A stretch of DNA of 61,730 nt from Kiritimatiellia bacterium (lineage in GTDB: Bacteria; Verrucomicrobiota; Kiritimatiellia; RFP12; UBA1067): NCBI GenBank assembly GCA_017525475.1, contig JAFXST010000089.1, positions 1-61,730 of the forward strand. The letters run 5' to 3'. Positions 12,136 to 61,600 of this stretch are shown piece after piece (position 1 is the first letter of the stretch; the number at the start of each line of letters is the position of its first letter). The notes beneath the pieces were generated by a model. The model saw only the letters and a list, made by a program, of their open reading frames with translations. It did no database searches and was not told the DNA's origin. Position numbers and translations under genes: made by a program.

Positions 12136-13293
12136 ATGGATAACTATATAAACCGAGCCTTGGAAGATAGCATTCGCTTGGGCCTTAAGCGCAATCCAGT
12201 GTTGGCGCTTTTGGGGCCTCGGCAATGCGGCAAGTCCACTTTGGTGCGCAAGCTTCGCCAGGAGTTTGCCGATTCTCTCTATCTGGATATGGAGCGCCCC
12301 TCGGATGTCGCCAAGTTGGCGGATCCGGAGTTGTTCTTGTCCCGTTGCCAAGACAAACTCGTCTGCATCGACGAAATTCAGCGGAGGCCAAACTTGTTTC
12401 CGGTCTTGCGCTCGTTGTGCGACGAATGGGGTGACAATGGCCATTTCCTGGTTTTAGGGTCGGCCTCGCGCGATCTCATTCGCCAAAGTTCCGAAACGCT
12501 GGCCGGTCGCATCCGTTACGAACGGCTTACGCCATTTCTTTATGGCGAACTGCCAGATTGCGATTGGCAGCGCTACCTTTATCGCGGAGGTTTCCCTCGT
12601 GCCTATCTTGCGTCTGACGATTCGGCGGCGCACGATTGGCTGGAATCCTTTATTCAAACGTTTCTCGAACGGGATTTGTCGTTCTGGCGCGAGTTTGTGC
12701 CCGAAACCATGCGCCGCCTATGGCGCATGCTGGCGCACGACAATGCGCAGATTGCCAATTTTGCCCGGCTTGCCGGCTCGCTGGGCGTGTCCGACATGAC
12801 GGTGCGGCGCTATCTCGATCTGCTCAAAGAAACATTTATGGTCGATGTAGTAAGCCCGTATTCTGCTAACCTCGGCAAGCGGTTAGTCAAGTCGCCCAAA
12901 GTGTACCTTGGCGATACCGGCATAACCTGTGCGCTGTTGGGTATGGCTTCGTTCGACGATCTCTACTCCAGCCCCGCTTTTGGCGGTTGCTGGGAACAGT
13001 TGGTGTTGGCCAATCTTCGTGGCGCATTTCCGCAGGCCGAAATCTGTTTCTACCGCACTTCCGGCGGTGCCGAAATCGATTTTGTGGTTTCAGGCAATGG
13101 CAAGACCGTGGCCGTGGAGTGCAAGGCATCTACTGTGCCATCTGTTGGCCGCGGAGTCTACGAGTCGCTTGAAGCAATTAGGCCAGATGCAGCTTTTGTG
13201 GTGGCGCCAATCGCCGAGCCCTATCCGCTCAACGATCGCATTACCGCCGTTCCGCTTTCGCACCTGCCAAAGCTATTTGACAACTTGCGCTAA
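12136..13293 (+). CDS. AAA+ ATPase with C-terminal DUF4143-type domain
   Basis: AAGGA RBS. Walker A GPRQCGKST, Walker B VCIDEIQ, and the length and layout of the COG1373 / DUF4143 ATPase family. Confidence 0.85.
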   Translation: MDNYINRALEDSIRLGLKRNPVLALLGPRQCGKSTLVRKLRQEFADSLYLDMERPSDVAKLADPELFLSRCQDKLVCIDEIQRRPNLFPVLRSLCDEWGDNGHFLVLGSASRDLIRQSSETLAGRIRYERLTPFLYGELPDCDWQRYLYRGGFPRAYLASDDSAAHDWLESFIQTFLERDLSFWREFVPETMRRLWRMLAHDNAQIANFARLAGSLGVSDMTVRRYLDLLKETFMVDVVSPYSANLGKRLVKSPKVYLGDTGITCALLGMASFDDLYSSPAFGGCWEQLVLANLRGAFPQAEICFYRTSGGAEIDFVVSGNGKTVAVECKASTVPSVGRGVYESLEAIRPDAAFVVAPIAEPYPLNDRITAVPLSHLPKLFDNLR

Positions 13294-13715: not shown

Positions 13716-13857
13716 CGGCAAGCCAAAGCCGAACCGCTACTAATCGCTAAAACAGTGCTACTGCATCTATGTGCCATAAATTGGTTATGCCCATTGACGA
13801 TTGCGCGTCCATACCAGCGCTATCGGTGGGGGCAACTGTAATCCGCGGAGGCTAGTC

Positions 13858-14772
13858 ATGGGGTTTAAGAAATTTATCAAGAAAGATGTGCAAACCAAAC
13901 GCGAGAATCTTTACGTTGATTGCTTCGTCAAAGGTTTAGGCGCATGTATCATTTTTGGGCTGATATGCTTTGTGGCCTATGCTGTAGCATGCAAATTGCT
14001 GACGAAATTCGGTGTACTGAATGCTAATTGGTTTTCTATCTCCTACTTCCATGGTGTCACATTGATTGCGTTATTGTCGTTGGCGGTTGCGGCAATATCC
14101 GTATATGTCACGATCAAGGTCAACGAGACCGTAAACTATCATTCCTTTAATACCCAATATGGCGGCAACGATATGCTGTCGGCAATACGCGCTGTTGGCG
14201 ATGTCGGGCGGCGTTGGACTGCATATTTCTGTGGTTCGCCAGATGGAGCCGGCTTTATTGCTCCGTATGTGTTCACTAGAAATGAAGATTACAATCCTAA
14301 TGACCGGCTGATCATAAAGAATATCAAATCTTTTGTTGTCGACAATAACCGCTACATGCCTTGGTCCGAGGAAGAAGATCGCGCCCGTAGAATGTTGAAG
14401 AATCATTTTTCCCAGGCCCTCGAGCTTTACCGAACGAGAAGGATAGGGAAAAGCGTTTTCCGCAATATTTGCGATAACGATTCATTGAGATTGCTTTTTG
14501 AGGTGGTAGAACCCATGGAGGCAATCATGAACGAGGAATACCATTTCAACGTATTCTACGAAATCATGGAGGCCATGAAAGACGAATGTCCTCGGCTCAG
14601 GGATATTACCAAGGCGCATGACTATACGCGCTATTATTGGGATGTTCCCAAAGAAAAAGGCGCCGAACCGCCACAGAAATCGTGGGTTAAAAGGAACGCT
14701 CCTTGTGTCAACGCAAATCCCAATAACACGGCAGGGCAAGAAGCCTCGCAAGAAAACAATCTCAAAAAGTAA
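13858..14772 (+). CDS. Hypothetical membrane protein (two predicted TM helices plus a soluble C-terminal domain)
   Basis: ATG 13858 follows GGAGG. There are hydrophobic stretches at about residues 25-45 and 60-85, and no family is recognisable by eye. AT-rich codon usage. Confidence 0.6.
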   Translation: MGFKKFIKKDVQTKRENLYVDCFVKGLGACIIFGLICFVAYAVACKLLTKFGVLNANWFSISYFHGVTLIALLSLAVAAISVYVTIKVNETVNYHSFNTQYGGNDMLSAIRAVGDVGRRWTAYFCGSPDGAGFIAPYVFTRNEDYNPNDRLIIKNIKSFVVDNNRYMPWSEEEDRARRMLKNHFSQALELYRTRRIGKSVFRNICDNDSLRLLFEVVEPMEAIMNEEYHFNVFYEIMEAMKDECPRLRDITKAHDYTRYYWDVPKEKGAEPPQKSWVKRNAPCVNANPNNTAGQEASQENNLKK

Positions 14773-14799: not shown

Positions 14800-17700
14800 A
14801 TGAATAAGACATTGACTGGAATAACTGTTGCGCCTCTGACGCGTTTGTTCACGCTGGGGCTGTGCATTTTCGCAATCGGCCATGCCTGGGCGGCGGTAAA
14901 GCCGCTCGCCGTCTGGAATGGGGATTTTGTCGATAACAGCGAACGAGGTGGTTTTACATTTACCATCAATGGGAATGAGCAGCTTGGTGTTGACGGTGTT
15001 AAGATGGGCTCATCAAATGCACTGAAGTTTGATTATGATATTACCGCAACGAGGGTATACAACACAGGAACAAAGGCATATCCGATTTCTATCGTTGCAG
15101 CAATGTCAAACATTGTTGTGACAGCAAGTACACCAGAGTCTACCAGGACATTGTTTTCTATTTCTCAGTTTGCATCATCTGCTGCTAATCAGTCGGTAAA
15201 AGCCAATTTTTATTCTTTTTCGCTTAATCCAAAATCATCAACGGGCTATTATTTAGGTGGTGATGGCAATTTGACCCGTGTGACAGGTACTTCAAGTTAT
15301 GCTCCCGTGAATGTATTTGATAATGCTGATACATGGCACTATATGGCAATGAAGCATAGTGGCAATGTCGGCACTCGGGGATGTGAGATTTCTGCTGGTA
15401 ATAACTTTCGTGAACTGGTTTATGACTCAACGTTGAAGTGGGGCACTAACGATGGATGGGGCTATTGGGGTTTGACGGTTGGTGGCGCCGGCACTGCGAA
15501 CAACAATTGCACAGATGCTGTTGTGCGTTATGTAGCACTAATTCAATCAGATGCTGACACAGACGTCGAAGCGTGGTCATTAAGAAACATGACGCGGGCA
15601 GAGACGCTCACGAGTTCATCAACTTCGTTTACAGGAGGCGACAATGTCGGTGTAAACTTCAACGGTGGCACGATTACGGTCGCGTCCGCACAGACGGCGG
15701 CGGCGCTGTTTGTTCAAGAGTCCACGACGATTGCGATTAATGGTTCAGGAAAAATTACAACAACGGCAAACGGCCCATACCAGGGACCTCTATATATCGC
15801 GGACGGCAAGACGCTGACGGTTACCACGGACAAGGCGACGGAGGCAAATCTGCGTTCCGCTTTTGATGCCTCGCTTGGAACGGGAACGATTACGCTAATA
15901 GATGCTCCAGTATATGGAACTGTTGACCTCTCGAATATTACGTCCTCATTGCCGACAATTGACGGCTACACAATTGTGGCGACAAGTGATGAAAATGGTG
16001 TGCGCATAGTAATGTCTTTAAATGGCGTCAATTACACTGGAACTGTAACAGGCGAAGCGACCTGGGCGGACAAGACGAATATTTCTTCAACGGATACCTG
16101 GGCGAACAGCCCAAGTTCTACGATTACGCTTTGCAATGAGGCCGAGGCATCTTTGACATTTGATGAAGATGTAAACGCCGAGTCGCTTACACTGAATGGC
16201 ACGGGTAAAATAACGCTCAGCCGTGGCAACAATGTCAATGTGCGGATAGGTGACAACACAACGGCAGGCAAGGCTATAATCGTGAATACCGAGGCCGTGC
16301 TTGAGGATTTGGGGCAGGATGCAGCTGTCCGCATAACAGGTTCAAACAAGGCGACCCTAAAAGACTATACAGCATTCCCCGCCGGCAGTACATTGCCTAG
16401 CACAGGAACACTTCGCATGGAAAGCGATACTGTCACGCTGACGGCATTCCCGTGCGCGGGCGTGAATCTTGCGGGAACCGTAGAAGTTGACCAGTCGATT
16501 ACATTGACGGGAGATGGTTTTTATTTGTACGACAACAAGCCTGCCGTGAACATAGAAGGGGGAACGGATTCGTTCTCGAGATTTGTCCTTGGAAACAAAT
16601 CGTCTTACGACAATCCAACTCAAACCGTCACTCAGAACGGCGGATCGATAACAGTAACAGGCACTGCAGAGCCGACAAGCACAAGTGCAACTATGCTCCT
16701 TGGACACTGGCCCTCGACATCCTATCTATATACGCGCGGCGGTACATTTTCAGTTCCCAACGCAGCTGTTCGCATGGGATGGAATGGTGGCGCGACATGG
16801 GAAATCGGTGGAGGAACAGGGACTGCTACGGTAACGGTGCCAGGCATTCTAATCAGTAAGAATGGTACTGCCGGGCGAGGAACGGTGAATGTGGCGGCAA
16901 AAGGAACGCTGAACCTTGGTTCGTACGGTCTTCAGATGCAGTCAAGCGCGGGAACACTGAATCTCTCCGGCGGCACGATCAAGGCGACCACAGACACAAC
17001 CATTGCAAACAACAAGAGTGATGGCACTGTGCTTACGGCGTCAAAGGAGACAACAATAGATACAACAAGCGGCAACGTAACTATCTCCGCGCCGTTGAGT
17101 GGTTCGGGAAGTCTGAATGTGACCGGCGGCGGAACATTGACGATAACCGGAAGCGGAACAGCGTCTGGAGGAACCATCAAAGCGACAGACAGTACAATTG
17201 TCCTTAGCGGAAACGGGGCGAAGCCTGGCGATACGATGTATAGTTTGAAGAAGGCAAGTGGTTCGAGCACAACGGCGAAGCTTGAGATTCGCCCTGGCGA
17301 AGGCAATACGATAACCCTTGCTCCAACGCATATCATCAACTCCACTGATTCTGGAGCGCAAATAATCGTAGGTGCTGGAACGACGAAGATTGCACACACC
17401 CAGACAAACGCGGGATCTGGAACGTTTGGAGGCGCGGTTGTCAAAGTAGAGGACGGGGGTACGCTGGAAGTCAATAACATCAACTGGACGGTTGAAAATG
17501 TAACATACGGCCTTGAAATAGGTGCGTCCAGTAAGTTTGCGGTAAATGCGCTTTCAACAAATTGTCGCCCGATCACGATGGGCGAGGGCGCTACGCTCGA
17601 AGTCTCGAAGGGTAGCAGTTATTCGACAACGGATGGGGCGCTGAAACTGGATTTTAGAAATGGCAATGGCTTTACCGTAAACGGCAATGCTACAATTCAG

Positions 17701-19566
17701 GCGACTGGCGAAGACGCAGAAACGCCTTTCATCAACATGACAGGTTCGGCGGCGCAACCTTTCAATGTCGCAAGTGAAAAAACACTTTCGGTAAATGCCA
17801 ACATCAAAGGAACGTCGGCATTGACGAAAACAGGCGCAGGTAAGCTTGCACTCAATGGCTATGGAGCAGATAGCGGCTACACGTACACCGGCACGACTAC
17901 GGTTAGTGCGGGGACGTTGGAAATCAATGCAACGCAGACTGGCTCGCCATATAGCCTTGTGGCAGGATCAACGCTGAAGTTTGGCACTTACGCGTCCGTG
18001 ACAATGCCGTCCATTATTCTTCCTGCGTCCGGGACGGCGGCGATTGACGTGAGTGCGTTGACGATTGGCGAAAACGGTGTGAAGCTTGTCACGTTTGCGA
18101 CGACGGCGCCGACCCAGGCGGATGTTGACAGCAAGCTGACAGTGACGGGGGGATACGCACTGAAGGTAGAGGATAACGCGCTCAAGGCGTATCCTGCTGT
18201 GGCGCAATATAACGGCAAGGGGTATGAAACCGTCAAGGCGGCGATTGACGCGGCGGTTGCGGACGGGCACACGTATGCCGATGTCACGATTCTCGACGCG
18301 ACGGCGGAGTGCCCGGATGGGTATTATATCGACAACGGCACACTGAAGAAGAAGCCTGCTTCTATAACGGTCGGCGAAAACGTTTATTATTACACTACCA
18401 TACAGGCGGCGGTACAAGATGCTCTTCCCGCGCCGTATGGGAGCCACTCCAACTACGACTATCTCACCATCTACGAAAGCAACACGGCGGTGGCGATGAT
18501 GGATTACACGCTCAAGCTTGCCACCGCGCCCGGCGTGACGGGTGTGACGGTTTCTCTGCCGGTTTCATTTACTACTACCGAATACGCCGTCTCGTCTGTT
18601 TCAGGCGATACTTATACGACGTATTCCGTTTCTGTGAATCCCAAGACTTATCGGTGGAAGAATGCGGCGGCTGGCACGCTTTGGACGACCCCTTCGAATT
18701 GGGAATTCCAAGACAATGAAACGTGGACGAGCGCACAGCGCTATCCGGGCGACGGCACGACGGGCGACTCCGTCGTCGTGACGGGCGATACGTCCATTCA
18801 GCTTGGTAATGCCGTGACGCTCGCTTCGTTGCAGGTGACGGACGGTGCGCTGGCGCTCGCGATTCCGAGCCAAGGAACAGCGACAACCTTGACCGCTTCC
18901 GAGATTACGCTCGGAGCGAACGCCACAATATCTCTTACAGGCGTGACGCTTTCGCAAGATCCTACGAGCGGGGTGGATTTGATGTATGTCAAGGCCACAA
19001 ATTCAGATGGGACCACTACTTACTCCTTGCAGGCGGCCGGAACGGTCGAAGAGGGGGTTGCCAAGATTACCGATGCCACCGCCGAAGTGACGGTTCCGGC
19101 AAACGCCACTGCAATCGAGGCGGCCCCGGCTGTATCCTCGATCAAACTGGCAGATGGATCGGCGATTACGGACAGCGACGTTACCGTAAAGTATAACGGC
19201 ACGACCAACATAACCGGCGCATTTTCCATCTCGGTAGCTGGCGATCAAGTCACTCTTGCCCTCAATGCGAACGGGTCGGTGACCATCAGCGACAAGACGA
19301 TTACGGTGAAGCCGGCAGTGGATACGTCGGCTGATCCGATGACGATGCCGGACGAAACAACAGCGCCGTCGTTCAACATCAAGACGATTCCGGGCCTCTA
19401 TTATGTGGTGAGGTCGGGTACTTCGCCGAACTCGCTTGCCGCCGGTTCGGCCACGCAGGCCACCACCACCACCACTGGCCTTGCGGGTCCGGCGCTGGGT
19501 AACAAGGACACTGTCCGCTACTACAAGATTTCGGTCGGCCGCACCGCCGCCGAAGCCGCGCAGTAA
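14800..19566 (+). CDS. Giant secreted repeat protein: signal peptide, LamG/concanavalin-like N-terminal domain, autotransporter-associated beta-strand repeats, distinct roughly 60-aa C-terminal module
   Basis: 1588-aa ORF with RBS AAAGGAG. Signal peptide LGLCIFAIGHAWA. Repeated GTLxLSGG / TKTGAGKLALNG...TYTGTTTVSAGTLEIN motifs typical of PVC-type autotransporter-associated beta-strand repeat proteins. The C-terminus reads IPGLYYVVRSG...VRYYKISVGRTAAEAAQ. Confidence 0.85.
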   Translation: MNKTLTGITVAPLTRLFTLGLCIFAIGHAWAAVKPLAVWNGDFVDNSERGGFTFTINGNEQLGVDGVKMGSSNALKFDYDITATRVYNTGTKAYPISIVAAMSNIVVTASTPESTRTLFSISQFASSAANQSVKANFYSFSLNPKSSTGYYLGGDGNLTRVTGTSSYAPVNVFDNADTWHYMAMKHSGNVGTRGCEISAGNNFRELVYDSTLKWGTNDGWGYWGLTVGGAGTANNNCTDAVVRYVALIQSDADTDVEAWSLRNMTRAETLTSSSTSFTGGDNVGVNFNGGTITVASAQTAAALFVQESTTIAINGSGKITTTANGPYQGPLYIADGKTLTVTTDKATEANLRSAFDASLGTGTITLIDAPVYGTVDLSNITSSLPTIDGYTIVATSDENGVRIVMSLNGVNYTGTVTGEATWADKTNISSTDTWANSPSSTITLCNEAEASLTFDEDVNAESLTLNGTGKITLSRGNNVNVRIGDNTTAGKAIIVNTEAVLEDLGQDAAVRITGSNKATLKDYTAFPAGSTLPSTGTLRMESDTVTLTAFPCAGVNLAGTVEVDQSITLTGDGFYLYDNKPAVNIEGGTDSFSRFVLGNKSSYDNPTQTVTQNGGSITVTGTAEPTSTSATMLLGHWPSTSYLYTRGGTFSVPNAAVRMGWNGGATWEIGGGTGTATVTVPGILISKNGTAGRGTVNVAAKGTLNLGSYGLQMQSSAGTLNLSGGTIKATTDTTIANNKSDGTVLTASKETTIDTTSGNVTISAPLSGSGSLNVTGGGTLTITGSGTASGGTIKATDSTIVLSGNGAKPGDTMYSLKKASGSSTTAKLEIRPGEGNTITLAPTHIINSTDSGAQIIVGAGTTKIAHTQTNAGSGTFGGAVVKVEDGGTLEVNNINWTVENVTYGLEIGASSKFAVNALSTNCRPITMGEGATLEVSKGSSYSTTDGALKLDFRNGNGFTVNGNATIQATGEDAETPFINMTGSAAQPFNVASEKTLSVNANIKGTSALTKTGAGKLALNGYGADSGYTYTGTTTVSAGTLEINATQTGSPYSLVAGSTLKFGTYASVTMPSIILPASGTAAIDVSALTIGENGVKLVTFATTAPTQADVDSKLTVTGGYALKVEDNALKAYPAVAQYNGKGYETVKAAIDAAVADGHTYADVTILDATAECPDGYYIDNGTLKKKPASITVGENVYYYTTIQAAVQDALPAPYGSHSNYDYLTIYESNTAVAMMDYTLKLATAPGVTGVTVSLPVSFTTTEYAVSSVSGDTYTTYSVSVNPKTYRWKNAAAGTLWTTPSNWEFQDNETWTSAQRYPGDGTTGDSVVVTGDTSIQLGNAVTLASLQVTDGALALAIPSQGTATTLTASEITLGANATISLTGVTLSQDPTSGVDLMYVKATNSDGTTTYSLQAAGTVEEGVAKITDATAEVTVPANATAIEAAPAVSSIKLADGSAITDSDVTVKYNGTTNITGAFSISVAGDQVTLALNANGSVTISDKTITVKPAVDTSADPMTMPDETTAPSFNIKTIPGLYYVVRSGTSPNSLAAGSATQATTTTTGLAGPALGNKDTVRYYKISVGRTAAEAAQ

Positions 19567-19616
19567 CCCAGCCTCCATATCTGGCACACGCAGGGCGGGG
19601 ACCACTCCCCGCCCTG
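19519..19616. repeat. Gene-end-plus-terminator repeat, copy A (functional 3' end of the giant gene)
   Basis: A 33-nt block (19519-19551) and a 30-nt block (GCCTCCATATCTGGCACACGCAGGGCGGGG) are identical to 20863-20895 and 20918-20947. Confidence 0.9.
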
Positions 19617-19622
19617 TGTTTT
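19591..19622 (+). terminator. Rho-independent terminator of the giant gene
   Basis: CAGGGCGGGG (19591-19600), loop ACCACT, CCCCGCCCTG (19607-19616), then TGTTTT. Confidence 0.8.
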
Positions 19623-19808
19623 AGTGTATTCCTGCTATCAGTGGTTGTGGATGACTACTGTCGCAAGCGTTGTCAATTGAACGCCGTGTTCAAAGCGGAT
19701 ATGACTCCGCTTTGGTATAGGAGCGTGGATAAATGCAGTAATTTGCAGTAATATTAGTAAATACATCGATAATATACTGCACCATTCCGGATGACACACA
19801 GATAAAGA

Positions 19809-19838
19809 TTGACAAAGGCATGGAGAATATGGTATAAT
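19809..19838 (+). promoter_or_regulatory. Putative promoter of the three-gene mini-cassette
   Basis: TTGACA (19809-19814), an 18-nt spacer ending in TGG, then TATAAT (19833-19838) followed by A. Confidence 0.6.
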
Positions 19839-19847
19839 ATGCGGCAA

Positions 19848-20114
19848 ATGGAACATATTGCAATACTTGGCAATAAAGGCAGATATACTTCGTTTTCGTT
19901 TGGCGGAAAGGAAGTGCGCTTTCTTTCGCCGTCGAATCTTGCGGGGTATCGGCGCGTAACCAAGTGGGACAATGGCTATATCGAGGCGGTGGCGGACTAT
20001 GGAAAGGGCGAGGAAGAGGAATACATCGACTTGATTCCGATTCTCGAGAATCTGTTTATCGAGCCAAAGGAGTTTCTGGCGCCAATCGACAAAGTGGAGG
20101 TGGCAAATGTCTGA
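19848..20114 (+). CDS. Hypothetical small protein (88 aa), possibly translated from a leaderless mRNA
   Basis: The first usable in-frame ATG (19848) lies only about 10 nt after the -10 hexamer, and there is no SD. The 3' end overlaps the next gene. Confidence 0.5.
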   Translation: MEHIAILGNKGRYTSFSFGGKEVRFLSPSNLAGYRRVTKWDNGYIEAVADYGKGEEEEYIDLIPILENLFIEPKEFLAPIDKVEVANV

Positions 20115-20331
20115 TGAGAAAAAATCCGCAATCGCCGACAGCGCCGATTTGATTGTCAACGACTATGCGATAATCCGCAATGGCGACAATTTGCGCTTGG
20201 TCAACTTGCGCACCGGCAATGCGGCGGTAGTGTTGCCGGGCAATGTCGTAAGCGAAACCAGCATGGGCGATATCGAGCTTGGGATAGCGCTCGACTATCT
20301 CAAGAACAATCTGCAATTCCTTGCCGCCTGA
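20107..20331 (+). CDS. Hypothetical small protein (74 aa)
   Basis: GGAGG (20096-20100) lies 6 nt before ATG 20107. The gene overlaps the preceding gene by 8 nt. Confidence 0.55.
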   Translation: MSDEKKSAIADSADLIVNDYAIIRNGDNLRLVNLRTGNAAVVLPGNVVSETSMGDIELGIALDYLKNNLQFLAA

Positions 20332-20333
20332 CC

Positions 20334-20612
20334 ATGCCCAAGTATTACGGATTCAAGGTTTACGGATATTATCTGTACTTTACTTCGCACTGCGTGGTAG
20401 AGGCAATGCACGCCCATGCCAGCGATACTCGATTGTCCGAACGTGGCTCGGCAAAGTTTTTTGTCCGTGCAGACGGCTCTTCGGAGGTTGCCGAGCGAGG
20501 CAGACTGACCGATCGTGAGCTTGTCGGCATTCGCGAGTTTATCCGTTGCAACTACCGGGATATGTATATGCGCTGGTCTGAATATTCCGACCAGGGCTTT
20601 TATCGGGCGTAG
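20334..20612 (+). CDS. DUF4160-like small protein (92 aa)
   Basis: The N-terminus MPKYYGFKVYGYYLYFTS...HAHAS...AKFFV follows the DUF4160 pattern (short beta-hairpin, His-containing segment, then xAKFxL). It starts 2 nt after the previous stop codon. Confidence 0.55.
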   Translation: MPKYYGFKVYGYYLYFTSHCVVEAMHAHASDTRLSERGSAKFFVRADGSSEVAERGRLTDRELVGIREFIRCNYRDMYMRWSEYSDQGFYRA

Positions 20613-20862: not shown

Positions 20863-20960
20863 TACTACAAGATTTCGGTCGGCCGCACCGCCGCCTAAGC
20901 CTCGGTCGAGTAACGACGCCTCCATATCTGGCACACGCAGGGCGGGGCTCACTCCCCGCC
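20863..20960. repeat. Gene-end-plus-terminator repeat, copy B (decayed 3' remnant of a paralogous giant-protein gene)
   Basis: Reads ...APAFAGTVQYYKISVGRTAA*, compared with ...GPALGNKDTVRYYKISVGRTAAEAAQ* in copy A. A TAA replaces the GAA codon, and the terminator stem GGCGGGG/CCCCGCC is retained (20941-20960). Confidence 0.85.
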
Positions 20961-21101
20961 TTGTTGTTTCTTCGCTCCCGGGTGATCTAGATTGCGGGGC
21001 GCAGAGGGTTGGAAGGGGGCGGAAGAGGTAAACGGCAAAGTGGTTTTGGACGGGCGATAGCGGGATTTTGCGGGATTTAGGGTGAAAATTCAAAGTTGTA
21101 C

Positions 21102-21130
21102 TTGAAAAATGAACCCAGGTGTACTATAAT
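21102..21130 (+). promoter_or_regulatory. Putative promoter reading into the repeat-array tract
   Basis: TTGAAA (21102-21107), a 17-nt spacer, then TATAAT (21125-21130) followed by A. Tandem GCGGGATTT x2 (about 21059 and 21069) lies just upstream. Confidence 0.55.
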
Positions 21131-21160
21131 ATGTCTGCATTCAACGAAATGGAGGCGCAG

Positions 21161-21445
21161 ATGATAACTCGAGAATTGGGTCGAATCATTCAGCAGGATG
21201 CCAAATTGTATCTGGCCGGGAACCTGCGGAAGTTTGCGTCGGAAGAGCCGAATGTGGCCGGTACGGCCTTGGTTTACGACGGTGCCGATATCCCGGCGGC
21301 AGACGGCAAGGATACGGCGGTTTTACCAACAAAAGGGGCAAATACGGCCAAGCTTTGGCCAATAGTTACCGCTTCAACTTGCCGGATATTACGCCAAAAG
21401 CGGAAAACACAGTGTCCGGGAGCCAGACAGGGCAGTGTCCGGTAA
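21161..21445 (+). CDS. Questionable small ORF (94 aa)
   Basis: ATG 21161 lies 5 nt after GGAGG (21151-21155). However, the 3' third runs into repeat array 1, and the stop codon is the TAA spacer of the perfect palindrome TGTCCGG-TAA-CCGGACA. No recognisable family. Confidence 0.25.
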   Translation: MITRELGRIIQQDAKLYLAGNLRKFASEEPNVAGTALVYDGADIPAADGKDTAVLPTKGANTAKLWPIVTASTCRILRQKRKTQCPGARQGSVR

Positions 21446-21525
21446 CCGGACAGGGCAGTGTCCGGGAGCCGGACAGTGTAGTGTCCGGGAGCCAGACACT
21501 GCAGTGTACGGCAGCCGGACACCAA
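21411..21525. repeat. Array 1: 5 x 23-bp tandem units, each with the dyad GTGTCCGG-N3-CCGGACAC
   Basis: Unit starts are at 21411, 21434, 21457, 21480 and 21503, exactly 23 bp apart. Units 2 and 3 have perfect 7-bp arms. Confidence 0.9.
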
Positions 21526-21750
21526 CAGAATGGTATCAGAATTGGCAACACTCTCTTTAACACCGATACCGAACAGAAGGCAGAATCGGGTTCGGGTTTA
21601 AAGAAATTGGAGGAAAGTAGGGGGAGAGGGCAGAAAGAAGGGATCGACCAGGTCAAGAGCGAGATTAGACAGGGCGAGTGGGACTCGGTCAAGAACTACC
21701 TCGCCGTGTTCGTCCGCCGCATCCAATCCCGCTTAGGACTGACCGTGTAG

Positions 21751-21860
21751 CATCCCGATGCCTGCGCCTCGCCATCCCGATCCCCGCCCGCCTCCATCCC
21801 GATGACGATGCGCTTTCATCCCGATGCCTGCACCTCGCCATCCCGATGCCTTCGGGTCCG
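21751..21860. repeat. Array 2: 5 x 22-bp direct repeats with invariant core CATCCCGAT
   Basis: Core starts are at 21751, 21773, 21795, 21817 and 21839, exactly 22 bp apart. Units 1 and 4 differ at one position. Confidence 0.9.
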
Positions 21861-21950
21861 GCGAGGATTTGATTTGGGTCCGGACCCGATTTGGATTTGG
21901 TCCCGAGGAAGGGTCTAGTTGCCCTAGGCAACTTGGCCCGTTGCTCTAGG
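21854..21950. repeat. Bridging 22-bp-phased motif pairs (GGGTCCGG / GATTTG units; GTTGCYCTAGG pair; 17-bp palindrome)
   Basis: GGGTCCGG at 21854 and 21876, then GGTCCC at 21899. GATTTG occurs four times. AGTTGCC-CTA-GGCAACT (21917-21933) is a palindrome. GTTGCCCTAGG at 21918 and GTTGCTCTAGG at 21940 are 22 bp apart. Confidence 0.75.
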
Positions 21951-21962
21951 CGCGGCGACTTG

Positions 21963-22116
21963 TTCTCCGTGGAACGCGAGCGACTTGCTCACGGAGACCG
22001 CCAAAGTTCTCCACGGAGACGGCCCAAGTTCTCCACGGTGACCATCGCCGTTCTCCGTGGAGACCATCCGCGTTCTCCGTGGAGAAAATTGGAATCCTCC
22101 ACGGCGATTGGCGCAG
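21963..22116. repeat. Array 3: 7 x 22-bp units with quasi-palindromic core TTCTCC-RY-GGAGAC
   Basis: Unit starts are at 21963, 21985, 22007, 22029, 22051, 22073 and 22095, exactly 22 bp apart. The central dinucleotide alternates GT and AC, so the core occurs in both orientations. Confidence 0.9.
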
Positions 22117-22162
22117 GGGACTTGGGCGTCAGATCCAACCGTTGGCAGGGTGCGCCTTTCGC

Positions 22163-22192
22163 TTGACAAATCGGGTCGGAATATGGTATAAT
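22163..22192 (+). promoter_or_regulatory. Putative promoter of tRNA(CAT)
   Basis: TTGACA (22163-22168), an 18-nt spacer ending in TGG, then TATAAT (22187-22192) followed by A. The tRNA starts at 22223. Confidence 0.65.
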
Positions 22193-22222
22193 ATACGCAA
22201 TCATTTACCCAAGAAGGTTAAT

Positions 22223-22299
22223 GGACCCGTAGCTCAGTCGGTCAGAGCAGGTGACTCATAATCTCCGGGTCGTGGGTTCAAGTCCCGCCGGGTCCACCA
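22223..22299 (+). tRNA. tRNA with anticodon CAT (elongator Met, or Ile2 read via lysidine); CCA encoded
   Basis: Hand-folded cloverleaf: acceptor GGACCCG/CGGGTCC, D-arm GCTC-AGTCGGTCA-GAGC, anticodon loop CTCATAA, T-arm GTGGG-TTCAAGT-CCCGC. It has a G1-C72 pair and lacks the GGG/CCC anticodon stem, so it is not an initiator tRNA. Confidence 0.9.
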
Positions 22300-22308
22300 A
22301 CTTTTGCG

Positions 22309-22824
22309 ATGAAAATGCGAATAATTACTATACTGGGCGCGCTACTGCTCTCGGGATGCGCAACCATGACGAAAACCGATCCGGGCGCGATCGCCGGCCT
22401 GGAATTTGCCGGCTATCCCGGCAAAGCCGGCGAGCAGGACTTTGCCATCTGCGTGTCGACGATAAGCGTCAATTTCATCTTGTGGCATATCTGCTCGGGC
22501 GACATCACCTGGGAGCCGGACAAGGAGGACGTCAACGGTTGGTGGACGTTTGACGACTGCTGCACGCAGGACCGGTTCATGGAGCTCATGGAGAAACTCG
22601 CCAAGCATTACGACGCCGATATCATCCAGTACCAGTACGACGACTACGAGCCGTTCAAACTGGGCGCCCTCACCGATACCGCCAACGCGCCGTATTGGGT
22701 GGCGTACTGGTTTTTCCCCACGCGCGAGGTGGAATGCTCGGCGGTGCTGAGGATCCGGCCCAAGGCGGCCGAGGCGGCGGCGGATACGGAGGCGAGCGCA
22801 ACTACAGTGGAGGTGGCGCAATGA
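22309..22824 (+). CDS. Putative lipoprotein (171 aa)
   Basis: Lipobox LLLSGC. It starts 9 nt after the tRNA CCA end. It shares the motif F-x-LW-x-ICSG-x2-W with the next gene. Confidence 0.7.
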   Translation: MKMRIITILGALLLSGCATMTKTDPGAIAGLEFAGYPGKAGEQDFAICVSTISVNFILWHICSGDITWEPDKEDVNGWWTFDDCCTQDRFMELMEKLAKHYDADIIQYQYDDYEPFKLGALTDTANAPYWVAYWFFPTREVECSAVLRIRPKAAEAAADTEASATTVEVAQ

Positions 22825-61141: not shown

Positions 61142-61600
61142 ATGAACAAGTCAATCGTCTGCGCCTTGTGCGCATTGTTGAGCGTGGCGGCGGTGGCCGC
61201 CCCGAGAGGCCCGGCGCCCCGGCGTCACGCACCCAAGGCCGTGCACCATTTCCGGCCGGCGCCCCGGCACCATCACCACCACCATGCCGAAGTCGGCCTG
61301 GTGGGCGGATTTGTCGGCGGCGTGGTGGGGAGCCTCGTCTACGATGCGATCGTGCGCCCCGAGCCGGTGGTGGTAAGCCCCGCCCCGGTCGTGGTGGCCC
61401 AACCCGCGCCCGTGGTGGTGTCCCAGCCGGCGCCGGTGGTGGTAAGTTCCGCTCCGGTAGTGGTCGAAGCCGCCCCCGCCGCCCAGGTGGAGCGCGTCTG
61501 GGTGGGCGGCCGGTACGTGGACCAAGTGCAGGCCAACGGCTCGATCGTCCGCGTCTGGCAACCCGGCCACTGGGAAGAGCGCCTCGTCGTCGTGCGTTAG
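61142..61600 (+). CDS. Small secreted protein with a His6 run and PAPVVV tandem repeats
   Basis: Signal peptide MNKSIVCALCALLSVAAVAAP. HHHHHH, then four or five copies of (S/A)PAPVVV(A/S)(Q/S), and C-terminal RVWVGGRYVD...VRVWQPGHWEER. Confidence 0.65.
   Translation: MNKSIVCALCALLSVAAVAAPRGPAPRRHAPKAVHHFRPAPRHHHHHHAEVGLVGGFVGGVVGSLVYDAIVRPEPVVVSPAPVVVAQPAPVVVSQPAPVVVSSAPVVVEAAPAAQVERVWVGGRYVDQVQANGSIVRVWQPGHWEERLVVVR

Follow-up and report, generated by a model that had tools for sequence, protein, structure and literature searches.

The locus examined here raises the question of what a row of seven 22-bp units, with no gene of its own, is doing a few dozen base pairs ahead of a tRNA promoter. 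The original prediction was that a protein coating the row, Array 3 (21963..22116; like the other repeat modules below, given without strand), could influence that promoter. The window, meaning the whole 61.7-kb stretch of DNA that was analysed, was compared with metagenome, plasmid and phage sequences, and the loci recovered are cited by L numbers, and proteins by P numbers.

Anatomy of Array 3

In each unit of Array 3, a dyad core of 13 bp, TTCTCC-RY-GGAGA, is followed by 9 bp of variable spacer. Read from the sequence, the units start at 21963, 21985, 22007, 22029, 22051, 22073 and 22095, so that the seven units and the spacing of exactly 22 bp were as first described, unit by unit. The assignment of centres was likewise correct (GT in units 1, 5 and 6; AC in units 2, 3, 4 and 7), as was the statement that TCTCCGTGGAGA is the reverse complement of TCTCCACGGAGA. 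Less can be made of the accompanying claim that one site is presented in both orientations: AC and GT units are both present, but the distinction adds little, the core being a dyad with any RY centre. Units 1, 2 and 7 are degenerate, with 8-9 of the 11 fixed core positions matched, and the 3' end of the array is a conserved pair of units (GGAGAAAA, TCCTCC).

Tandem Repeats Finder reported a period of 22 across 21990-22085, and a separate repeat finder returned families spaced at 22 bp. With at most one mismatch, TCTCCRYGGAGA occurs four times in the 61.7-kb window, every time within Array 3, where 0.65 occurrences were expected, and a count of four was reached in none of 100 shuffles. Arrays of period 22-23 with at least three copies were nearly absent from 1.6 Mb of unrelated bacterial loci, and the occurrence of three 22-23-bp arrays inside 720 bp of the window is therefore far beyond chance.

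Genomic setting and the neighbouring arrays

A low-GC island extends from ~12 kb to 22.2 kb of the window (46-57% GC vs ~64%). It carries genes for a DUF4143/AAA_14 ATPase (12136-13293), a surface protein of 1588 aa with PATR repeats (14800-19566) and an uncharacterised protein of 323 aa (13801-14772), as well as small cassette genes (DUF7724, 19809-20114; an ORF at 20107-20331; DUF4160, 20334-20612). Between PFK and tRNA-Met, the gene content of relatives is quite different from that of the window. A hairpin element of ~50 bp (CCTCCATATCTGGCACACGCAGGGCGGGG..CCCCGCC) is present in two copies, 19573-19620 and 20913-20965, on both sides of the DUF7724/DUF4160 cassette, and is also found 5' of Array 2 in L124 and L132, there in company with other toxin-antitoxin cassettes. 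The region between the hairpins has the look of a hotspot for cassettes, with REP-like terminators as its boundaries. In L132, a Gp49/HTH toxin-antitoxin pair has six 11-bp direct repeats (GTGTCAGTAAA, positions 419-485) immediately 5' of its consensus promoter, a further phased array in the same lineage. Close to where the window ends, at 61356-61443, tandem repeats with periods of 21 and 24 are probably coding.

Array 3 is preceded by several other repeat modules. Directly upstream is a linker module (21906..21962) of CTAGG-centred palindromes (GTTGCC-CTAG-GCAAC) arranged as an inverted repeat, which accompanies Array 3 in L124, L214 and L140 also. Before it come short repeats with a period of ~22 bp (21851..21905; GGGTCCGG...GATTTGG), a module common to L214/L201 and L140, and Array 2 (21751..21860), with five 22-bp units of core CATCCCGATG and the dyad form CATC-NN-GATG.

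The outermost module, Array 1 (21398..21522), has five 23-bp units with the 17-bp palindrome TGTCCGG-N3-CCGGACA, and sits within the coding frame of a 5'-truncated gene remnant of the O-like type (HTH_36, PF13730; 21316..21750, forward strand), recovered by tblastn with P0037. Window positions 21316-21747 align to residues 75-195 of P0037, and the winged-helix N-domain (residues 1-74) is absent. In place of the lost 5' part there is a 104-aa reading frame, ORF A (21131-21445, forward strand), preceded by a promoter-like site, TTGAAA-17-TATAAT (21102-21130, same strand); ORF A matched no family, and the searches found no relatives besides the window's own copy. A fusion of ORF A and ORF B into one frame through the loss of one 23-bp unit fits arithmetically, but was rejected since ORF A is unrelated and frame 1 holds the actual gene, the HTH_36 remnant. 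P0037 (195 aa) and P0038 (258 aa), both found with the ORFs around Array 1 and both PF13730 members, differ inside the array by 3 x 23 bp, a difference that preserves the reading frame. P0037 is 29% identical (E = 8e-10) to a protein of phage contig L106 that matches PHROG 'replication initiation / O-like' families, and the L106 gene contains a four-unit TGTCCGG-ATT-CCGGACA array at the position equivalent to that in P0037. This homology and shared array position identify Array 1 as a block of iterons that, as in lambda, lies within an O-like gene, which is truncated in the window.

It might be supposed that all of the arrays are what is left of the replication origin of an integrated phage, plasmid or satellite, now defunct, of which the O-like gene and Array 1 formed the core while Arrays 2 and 3 were accessory or architectural. 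The seven 22-bp units match classic iteron geometry, as exemplified by the R6K gamma origin (7 x 22 bp) and pPS10 (4 x 22 bp), the tract occupies the margin of a low-GC island, and Array 1 is within an HTH_36 gene whose phage homologue has an equivalent array in the same position. Array 3 itself does not behave in this way, however. It has no rep-like gene, housekeeping genes flank its homologues and neither replication nor mobility genes were found near them, and the HTH_36 copy at Array 1 has no DNA-binding domain. Matches to the DnaA box (TTATCCACA, at most one mismatch) numbered six against 4.7 expected, with none in 21000-22300, and no AT-rich unwinding stretch was found beside Array 3, where GC is 0.55-0.65. 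L124 has Arrays 2 and 3 without the O-like gene, and searches of 72,556 plasmid and 50,697 phage records matched the tRNA only. A relic origin is accordingly considered rather unlikely.

Homologues of Array 3 and the wider class of arrays

A metagenome scan for two consecutive Array 3 units returned 107 loci, of which ~45 were true arrays; the copies elsewhere are all from metagenome contigs, and coverage of the array's own genome was the 61.7 kb of the window. Homologues 75-90% identical to Array 3, with some spacers and upstream linker modules included in the similarity, were present in contigs of similar GC, and occupied at least five unrelated intergenic contexts in similar gut/rumen bacteria. 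In L124 and L132 the array follows a giant PATR gene or toxin-antitoxin cassettes, which is the same locus as in the window, while in L201 and L214 it lies between maf and pcnB, and elsewhere it is ahead of a CxxCxxCC gene (L188), a secreted-protein gene (L140) or an HU-like gene (L134, L135, L120). In every context, the array end bearing the GGAGAAAA and TCCTCC units points to the start of the next gene, and copy number ranges from 5 to 7 across loci homologous to that of the window. In L124, read on its reverse strand, an IS110-family element is inserted ~70 bp past Array 3, right beside the array. Palindromic repeats are often the target of IS110 elements.

A sequence logo built from 43 units of eight loci showed 1.0-2.0 bits at core positions 1-13 and 0.1-0.57 bits at spacer positions 14-22. 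The core centre was RY in every one of the 43 units (GT in 26, AC in 15, GC in 2), and orthologous units were seen to switch between AC and GT centres (window vs L124). The combination of a conserved core, a free spacer and an RY centre indicates a dyad-symmetric protein site repeated in helical phase, not recent slippage. That part of the original prediction which saw the array as something a protein might coat was borne out to this extent, as the conserved core, free spacer and strict 22-bp spacing look like the sites of a DNA-binding protein, and a candidate cognate family, HU-HIG, is also now available (see below). A literature search with the core sequences returned primers only.

The same architecture was found in lower-GC, Bacteroidetes-like contigs, where the central block usually has four units of the form TTATCWCC-RY-GGWGATAA and is flanked by other 22-bp arrays, often in inverted symmetry. 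The flanks of the four palindromic central units in these Bacteroidetes-type loci consist of ATACGGATGGAAAT-type units in inverted symmetry, and in L122, L136, L146, L191, L198, L211 and others, an intergenic region of 350-450 bp is made up almost wholly of 22-bp units. There are five central units in L191 vs four in L198 and L211. All 45 array loci were intergenic, with every gene orientation represented. The Bacteroidetes-type array had zero matches to the plasmid and phage records, and an all-against-all BLAST across the array loci revealed no conserved neighbour gene. The link to HU-HIG proteins, described next, surfaced only through profile searches because these proteins are too divergent for BLAST.

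Association of arrays with HU-HIG proteins

HU-HIG proteins are a clade of the HU/IHF superfamily with an HU + Ig architecture, and 4FMR is their prototype. The authors who defined the clade judged sequence-specific regulation to be unlikely (PMC5499826). No DNA target has been described for these proteins, and the sole published proposal for them is a role in mobile-DNA conflicts. In a Pfam scan of 61 array-flanking metagenome genes, HU-HIG was the commonest family, with four genes (in L114, L149, L189 and L209), and in all four loci the start codon is preceded by an array at a distance of 45-60 bp. That of L114 has ~10 copies of the core TTCTCCACGGAGA. In the Bacteroidetes HU-HIG loci, the arrays have a promoter-like TAnnTTTG motif on one side and the start codon on the other. 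One of the Bacteroidetes proteins (L189) has a C-terminal HTH_36 domain, which connects the HU-HIG and HTH_36 protein families.

A corresponding arrangement was found for Array 3. In L134, L135 and L120, an Array 3-type array ends ~60 bp 5' of the start codon of a 354-aa protein, and Array 3 of the window is identical to those of L134/L120 at 36 of 39 positions and to that of L135 at 32 of 37; the core and part of the spacers are common to the window's Array 3 and to the array directly upstream of the P0009-type gene. The 354-aa protein (L135) gave a weak match to PF14848, and the AlphaFold model of P0009 (pLDDT 77) had 4FMR as its top PDB match (E = 6e-8). The L135 protein has 26 homologues of ~350 aa each, and the P0009-type family amounts to 184 clusters (50% identity; E <= 0.001) among 1.84 billion representatives.

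For four other homologues, on contigs of the same sample series as the window's relatives and in regions rich in toxin-antitoxin and restriction genes, the gene is immediately preceded by 3-5 units of a 22-bp array that differs from one homologue to the next. The array cores are CATCGGGATG / CATCCCGATG for P0012 (L222), GTAAAGTCCCTCG for P0025 (L223, L224), CTACATCGTTAT for P0014 (L221) and GCATCCAATGG for P0029 (L225). The array ahead of P0012 has the Array 2 motif, and is identical to window positions 21801-21827 at 25 of 27 positions, spacer included. P0009 and P0012 share 35% identity in residues 1-120 and 92% in the remainder. Between P0012 and P0014, identity in the N-domain is 80% and the array cores are related (ATCG-N-GAT). 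Overall, five N-domain types were matched to five array cores, albeit in a small sample. These identities, set beside the cores, indicate that the N-terminal DNA-binding domain and the upstream array change together. P0019 (366 aa) is a chimera of a P0009-type N-domain (90% identity over residues 1-117) and an unrelated C-terminal part (19%), which adds to the evidence for an N-domain that is transferred as a modular unit.

The pairing of array and protein is based on ~8 independent loci. No HU-HIG genes were found within the 61.7-kb window, and a search for relatives of the HU-like family in viral contigs gave zero. Homologues of the P0009 family are present in the same samples as the window's close relatives. 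The adjacency of array and gene could also come from the co-transfer of an array and the 5' end of a gene as a recombination cassette, without binding.

A different account of the same pattern is that the arrays are selfish or neutral repeats dispersed between genes, that is, minisatellites within a mosaic MITE-like element of the BrickBuilt or BIME kind that have no dedicated binder. The intergenic position in any gene orientation would fit, as would the modular composition that differs from locus to locus, the 5-7 copies that vary among homologous loci, and the IS110 element adjoining the copy in L124, and there is a parallel in the BrickBuilt elements of Porphyromonas gingivalis, 23-nt tandem repeats with 19 intergenic copies and promoter activity (PMC4596501). 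Yet the contrast between core and spacer and the strict RY centre speak for selection on a site rather than slippage of whole units, and when occupied sites were compared with one another, shared modules but no terminal inverted repeats or target duplications were seen where homology stops. Nor does this account explain why the arrays go with HU-HIG genes and vary in step with the N-domain, and we consider it unlikely.

The tRNA-Met promoter and other alternatives

Downstream of Array 3, and outside the element, are a perfect consensus promoter (TTGACA-18-TATAAT, 22163-22192) and the tRNA-Met(CAT) gene (22223-22299), both on the forward strand. The array ends 46 bp ahead of the -35 hexamer, close to the ~45 bp originally estimated. 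Orthologous loci were anchored on the lipoprotein gene (22309-22824) just 3' of tRNA-Met, for which eight homologues with 61-97% identity were found and their contigs compared. In the seven loci aligned, the tRNA-Met is 100% identical, the TTGACA/TATAAT promoter is retained in six, and no array is present upstream of the tRNA. The homology of relatives to the window breaks off just 5' of the -35, and the DNA beyond this point varies by lineage: it holds small ORFs of low GC, or a Trans_reg_C gene, or has folK directly against the promoter.

The idea that Array 3 is part of the tRNA(CAT) promoter is contradicted by these comparisons, as relatives keep the tRNA and its promoter and have unrelated DNA in place of the array, and homologous arrays adjoin unrelated genes as well (pcnB, CxxCxxCC, secreted protein, HU-like). 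Array 3 is not, therefore, a conserved promoter component, but part of the accessory DNA inserted at a plastic site at the edge of the island; it could still act locally on this promoter, at a distance of 46 bp. The stronger version, in which Array 3 is a dedicated upstream regulatory element of that promoter, draws on the short distance to the -35 and on the other high-GC contexts, where the same array end faces the next gene and a consensus promoter often lies between them. It is very unlikely, given that promoter and tRNA are conserved without the array where the neighbouring lipoprotein is 63-89% identical, that the distance from array to promoter varies by context, and that the array belongs to an accessory island.

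Several other features of this region were noted. The contigs of the closest relatives (L099-L102; lipoprotein 89-97% identical) stop inside or at tRNA-Met, which fits strain-variable or repeated upstream DNA that breaks assemblies. The promoter of the DUF7724 cassette (TTGACAAAGGCATGGAGAATATGGTATAATATG, 19808-19840) has a -35 and an extended -10 nearly the same as those of the tRNA-Met promoter (22163-22192), a likeness that could reflect a shared strong consensus or a copied promoter. An ilvB-based synteny search of 185,579 species genomes returned one distant locus only, and this was non-syntenic.

Alternatively, the array might act as RNA or single-stranded DNA, its small tandem hairpins or long AC/GT pairings serving as a leader, terminator or REP-like stabiliser. 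The segment 21955-22125 has a predicted fold of -77.6 kcal/mol (z = -4.05), and the Bacteroidetes HU-HIG arrays are downstream of a promoter-like motif, i.e., in the leader. The low z-score is trivial, however, since it follows from repeated palindromes, and single units fold weakly (-0.8 to -4 kcal/mol). Neighbouring arrays of the same period (e.g., GTAAAGTCCCTCG or the ATACGG units) are non-palindromic, the arrays matched no family in Rfam, and no promoter in the window is positioned to transcribe Array 3 specifically. A role of this kind seems highly improbable.

The remaining candidates were rejected: a chromosomal origin (7 of the 9 DnaA-box positions are matched by the core, but no DnaA-box cluster, AT-rich stretch, dnaA or dnaN was found nearby, genes run in the same direction on both sides of the array, and the contexts are non-syntenic); a phage pac/cos site for the small terminase (suggested by arrays near TerL in L106 and L110, but the L106 gene is O-like, and viral matches to an Array 2-like pattern were at chance level, three for the 18-base pattern, one of them within a coding region); and a known plasmid or phage element or a known RNA family (BLAST matched the tRNA alone, and Rfam gave none).

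Proposed explanation and its significance

Our preferred explanation, given about an even chance of being right on the sequence comparisons, is that Array 3 is an orphan: an iteron-like row of docking sites for some HU-HIG paralogue whose gene lies elsewhere. It is called an orphan because an intact cognate gene is absent from its neighbourhood in the window, and confidence is only moderate since the evidence is comparative and comes from few loci. The anatomy of the array, its pattern of conservation, its dispersal, and the associations of arrays with genes and with N-domains were observed directly. Binding of an HU-HIG protein to Array 3, its cooperativity, and any effect on transcription would be consequences of the following model.

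As its final module, Array 3 closes a composite, non-coding tract of ~1 kb (21316-22116) at the right edge of the low-GC island, in which repeats phased at 22-23 bp form three stacked, iteron-like arrays of presumably differing specificity. The modules may each serve a different protein from fast-evolving DNA-binding families, offering it a row of iteron-like sites; genes of these families would normally carry their own array, and the cognate genes would here be broken (Array 1) or missing from the window (Arrays 2 and 3). Each 13-bp dyad of Array 3 could be occupied by a dimer of the cognate P0009-type HU-HIG protein, and the spacing of 22 bp, or two helical turns, would place all dimers on one face of the DNA, allowing cooperative assembly into a bent or coated nucleoprotein complex. 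Ahead of its own gene, such a complex would be autoregulatory, whereas at an orphan array it would act on the adjoining DNA, in this case the tRNA-Met promoter 46 bp away.

More tentatively, and with considerable doubt, HU-HIG proteins as a group may be sequence-specific 'array readers', in which the N-domain reads the protein's own 22-bp row and array and N-domain are swapped as a cassette, with orphan arrays, at times stacked in several specificities as in the window, contributing to local DNA architecture or to mobile-element conflicts. If so, they would represent a previously unrecognised system of protein-DNA recognition, common to Bacteroidetes and to high-GC gut/rumen bacteria. Phased iteron or operator arrays are already known as a kind, but in the literature searched, the pairing with HU-HIG proteins, the co-swapping of N-domain and array, and stacked orphan arrays have not been described. 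HU-HIG is a large and rapidly diversifying branch of HU/IHF, several paralogues of which now have a candidate target, a phased 22-bp array that varies in step with the N-domain. The explanation would also account for puzzling intergenic tandem repeats that break metagenome assemblies and can be mistaken for iterons, CRISPR-like arrays or promoter elements. In practical terms, Array 3 should be treated as accessory DNA at the edge of an island, outside the core tRNA promoter.

Comparison with known systems

The arrays resemble iterons (R6K gamma, pPS10, ori-lambda) in their two-turn period of 22 bp, 4-7 copies, conserved core and free spacer, and the position of Array 1 within a winged-helix (HTH_36, O-like) coding frame, as in phage contigs L104-L107, recalls lambda O. 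Unlike iterons, Array 3 has no adjoining initiator gene, AT-rich element or DnaA boxes, its units are dyad-symmetric, its homologues lie among housekeeping genes, and its candidate partner protein is HU-like rather than a Rep.

Rows of short sites just upstream of the gene for the binding protein are also known from omega (pSM19035), ParR/parC (R1) and the four HipB operators. As in these, the sites occur in either orientation and cooperative binding along one face is plausible, but period, motif and fold differ (HU-like here; ribbon-helix-helix or Xre there), and orphan copies far from the gene, as seen here, are not a feature of those systems. REP/BIME elements share with the present arrays their short palindromes, intergenic position and mosaic make-up. 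The Array 3 units lack the GTAG or CGTC tags of the 20-40-bp REP/BIME palindromes and have no link to a RAYT transposase; they are 22 bp long instead of 35-40 bp, and several of their companion arrays are non-palindromic.

The protein beside Array 3-type arrays resembles HU-HIG proteins in its predicted HU + Ig architecture, rapid divergence and lack of operon partners, and in its location in variable regions with many toxin-antitoxin and restriction genes. It differs from those described in belonging to a small family (the 184 clusters at 50% identity noted above), which occurs in high-GC contigs from outside Bacteroidetes.

BrickBuilt, the closest counterpart so far described for this class of arrays, is similar in having tandem, modular units of 22-23 nt that are always intergenic, occur in several contexts near promoters, and vary in copy number. 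Its repeats have no division into spacer and core, whereas Array 3 has a 13-bp core and a 9-bp spacer. Flanking them are a leader and a tail bearing IS5-like terminal inverted repeats, and P. gingivalis and P. gulae are the only species that have them (PMC4596501); ends of this type were not found at the limits of homology of the Array 3 copies. One BrickBuilt copy, BrickBuilt_14, lies directly 5' of PGN_0872, a gene for a DNA-binding protein of the HU type (PF00216) (PMC4596501, Table 1), and this is possibly an echo of the link between arrays and HU-like proteins described here.
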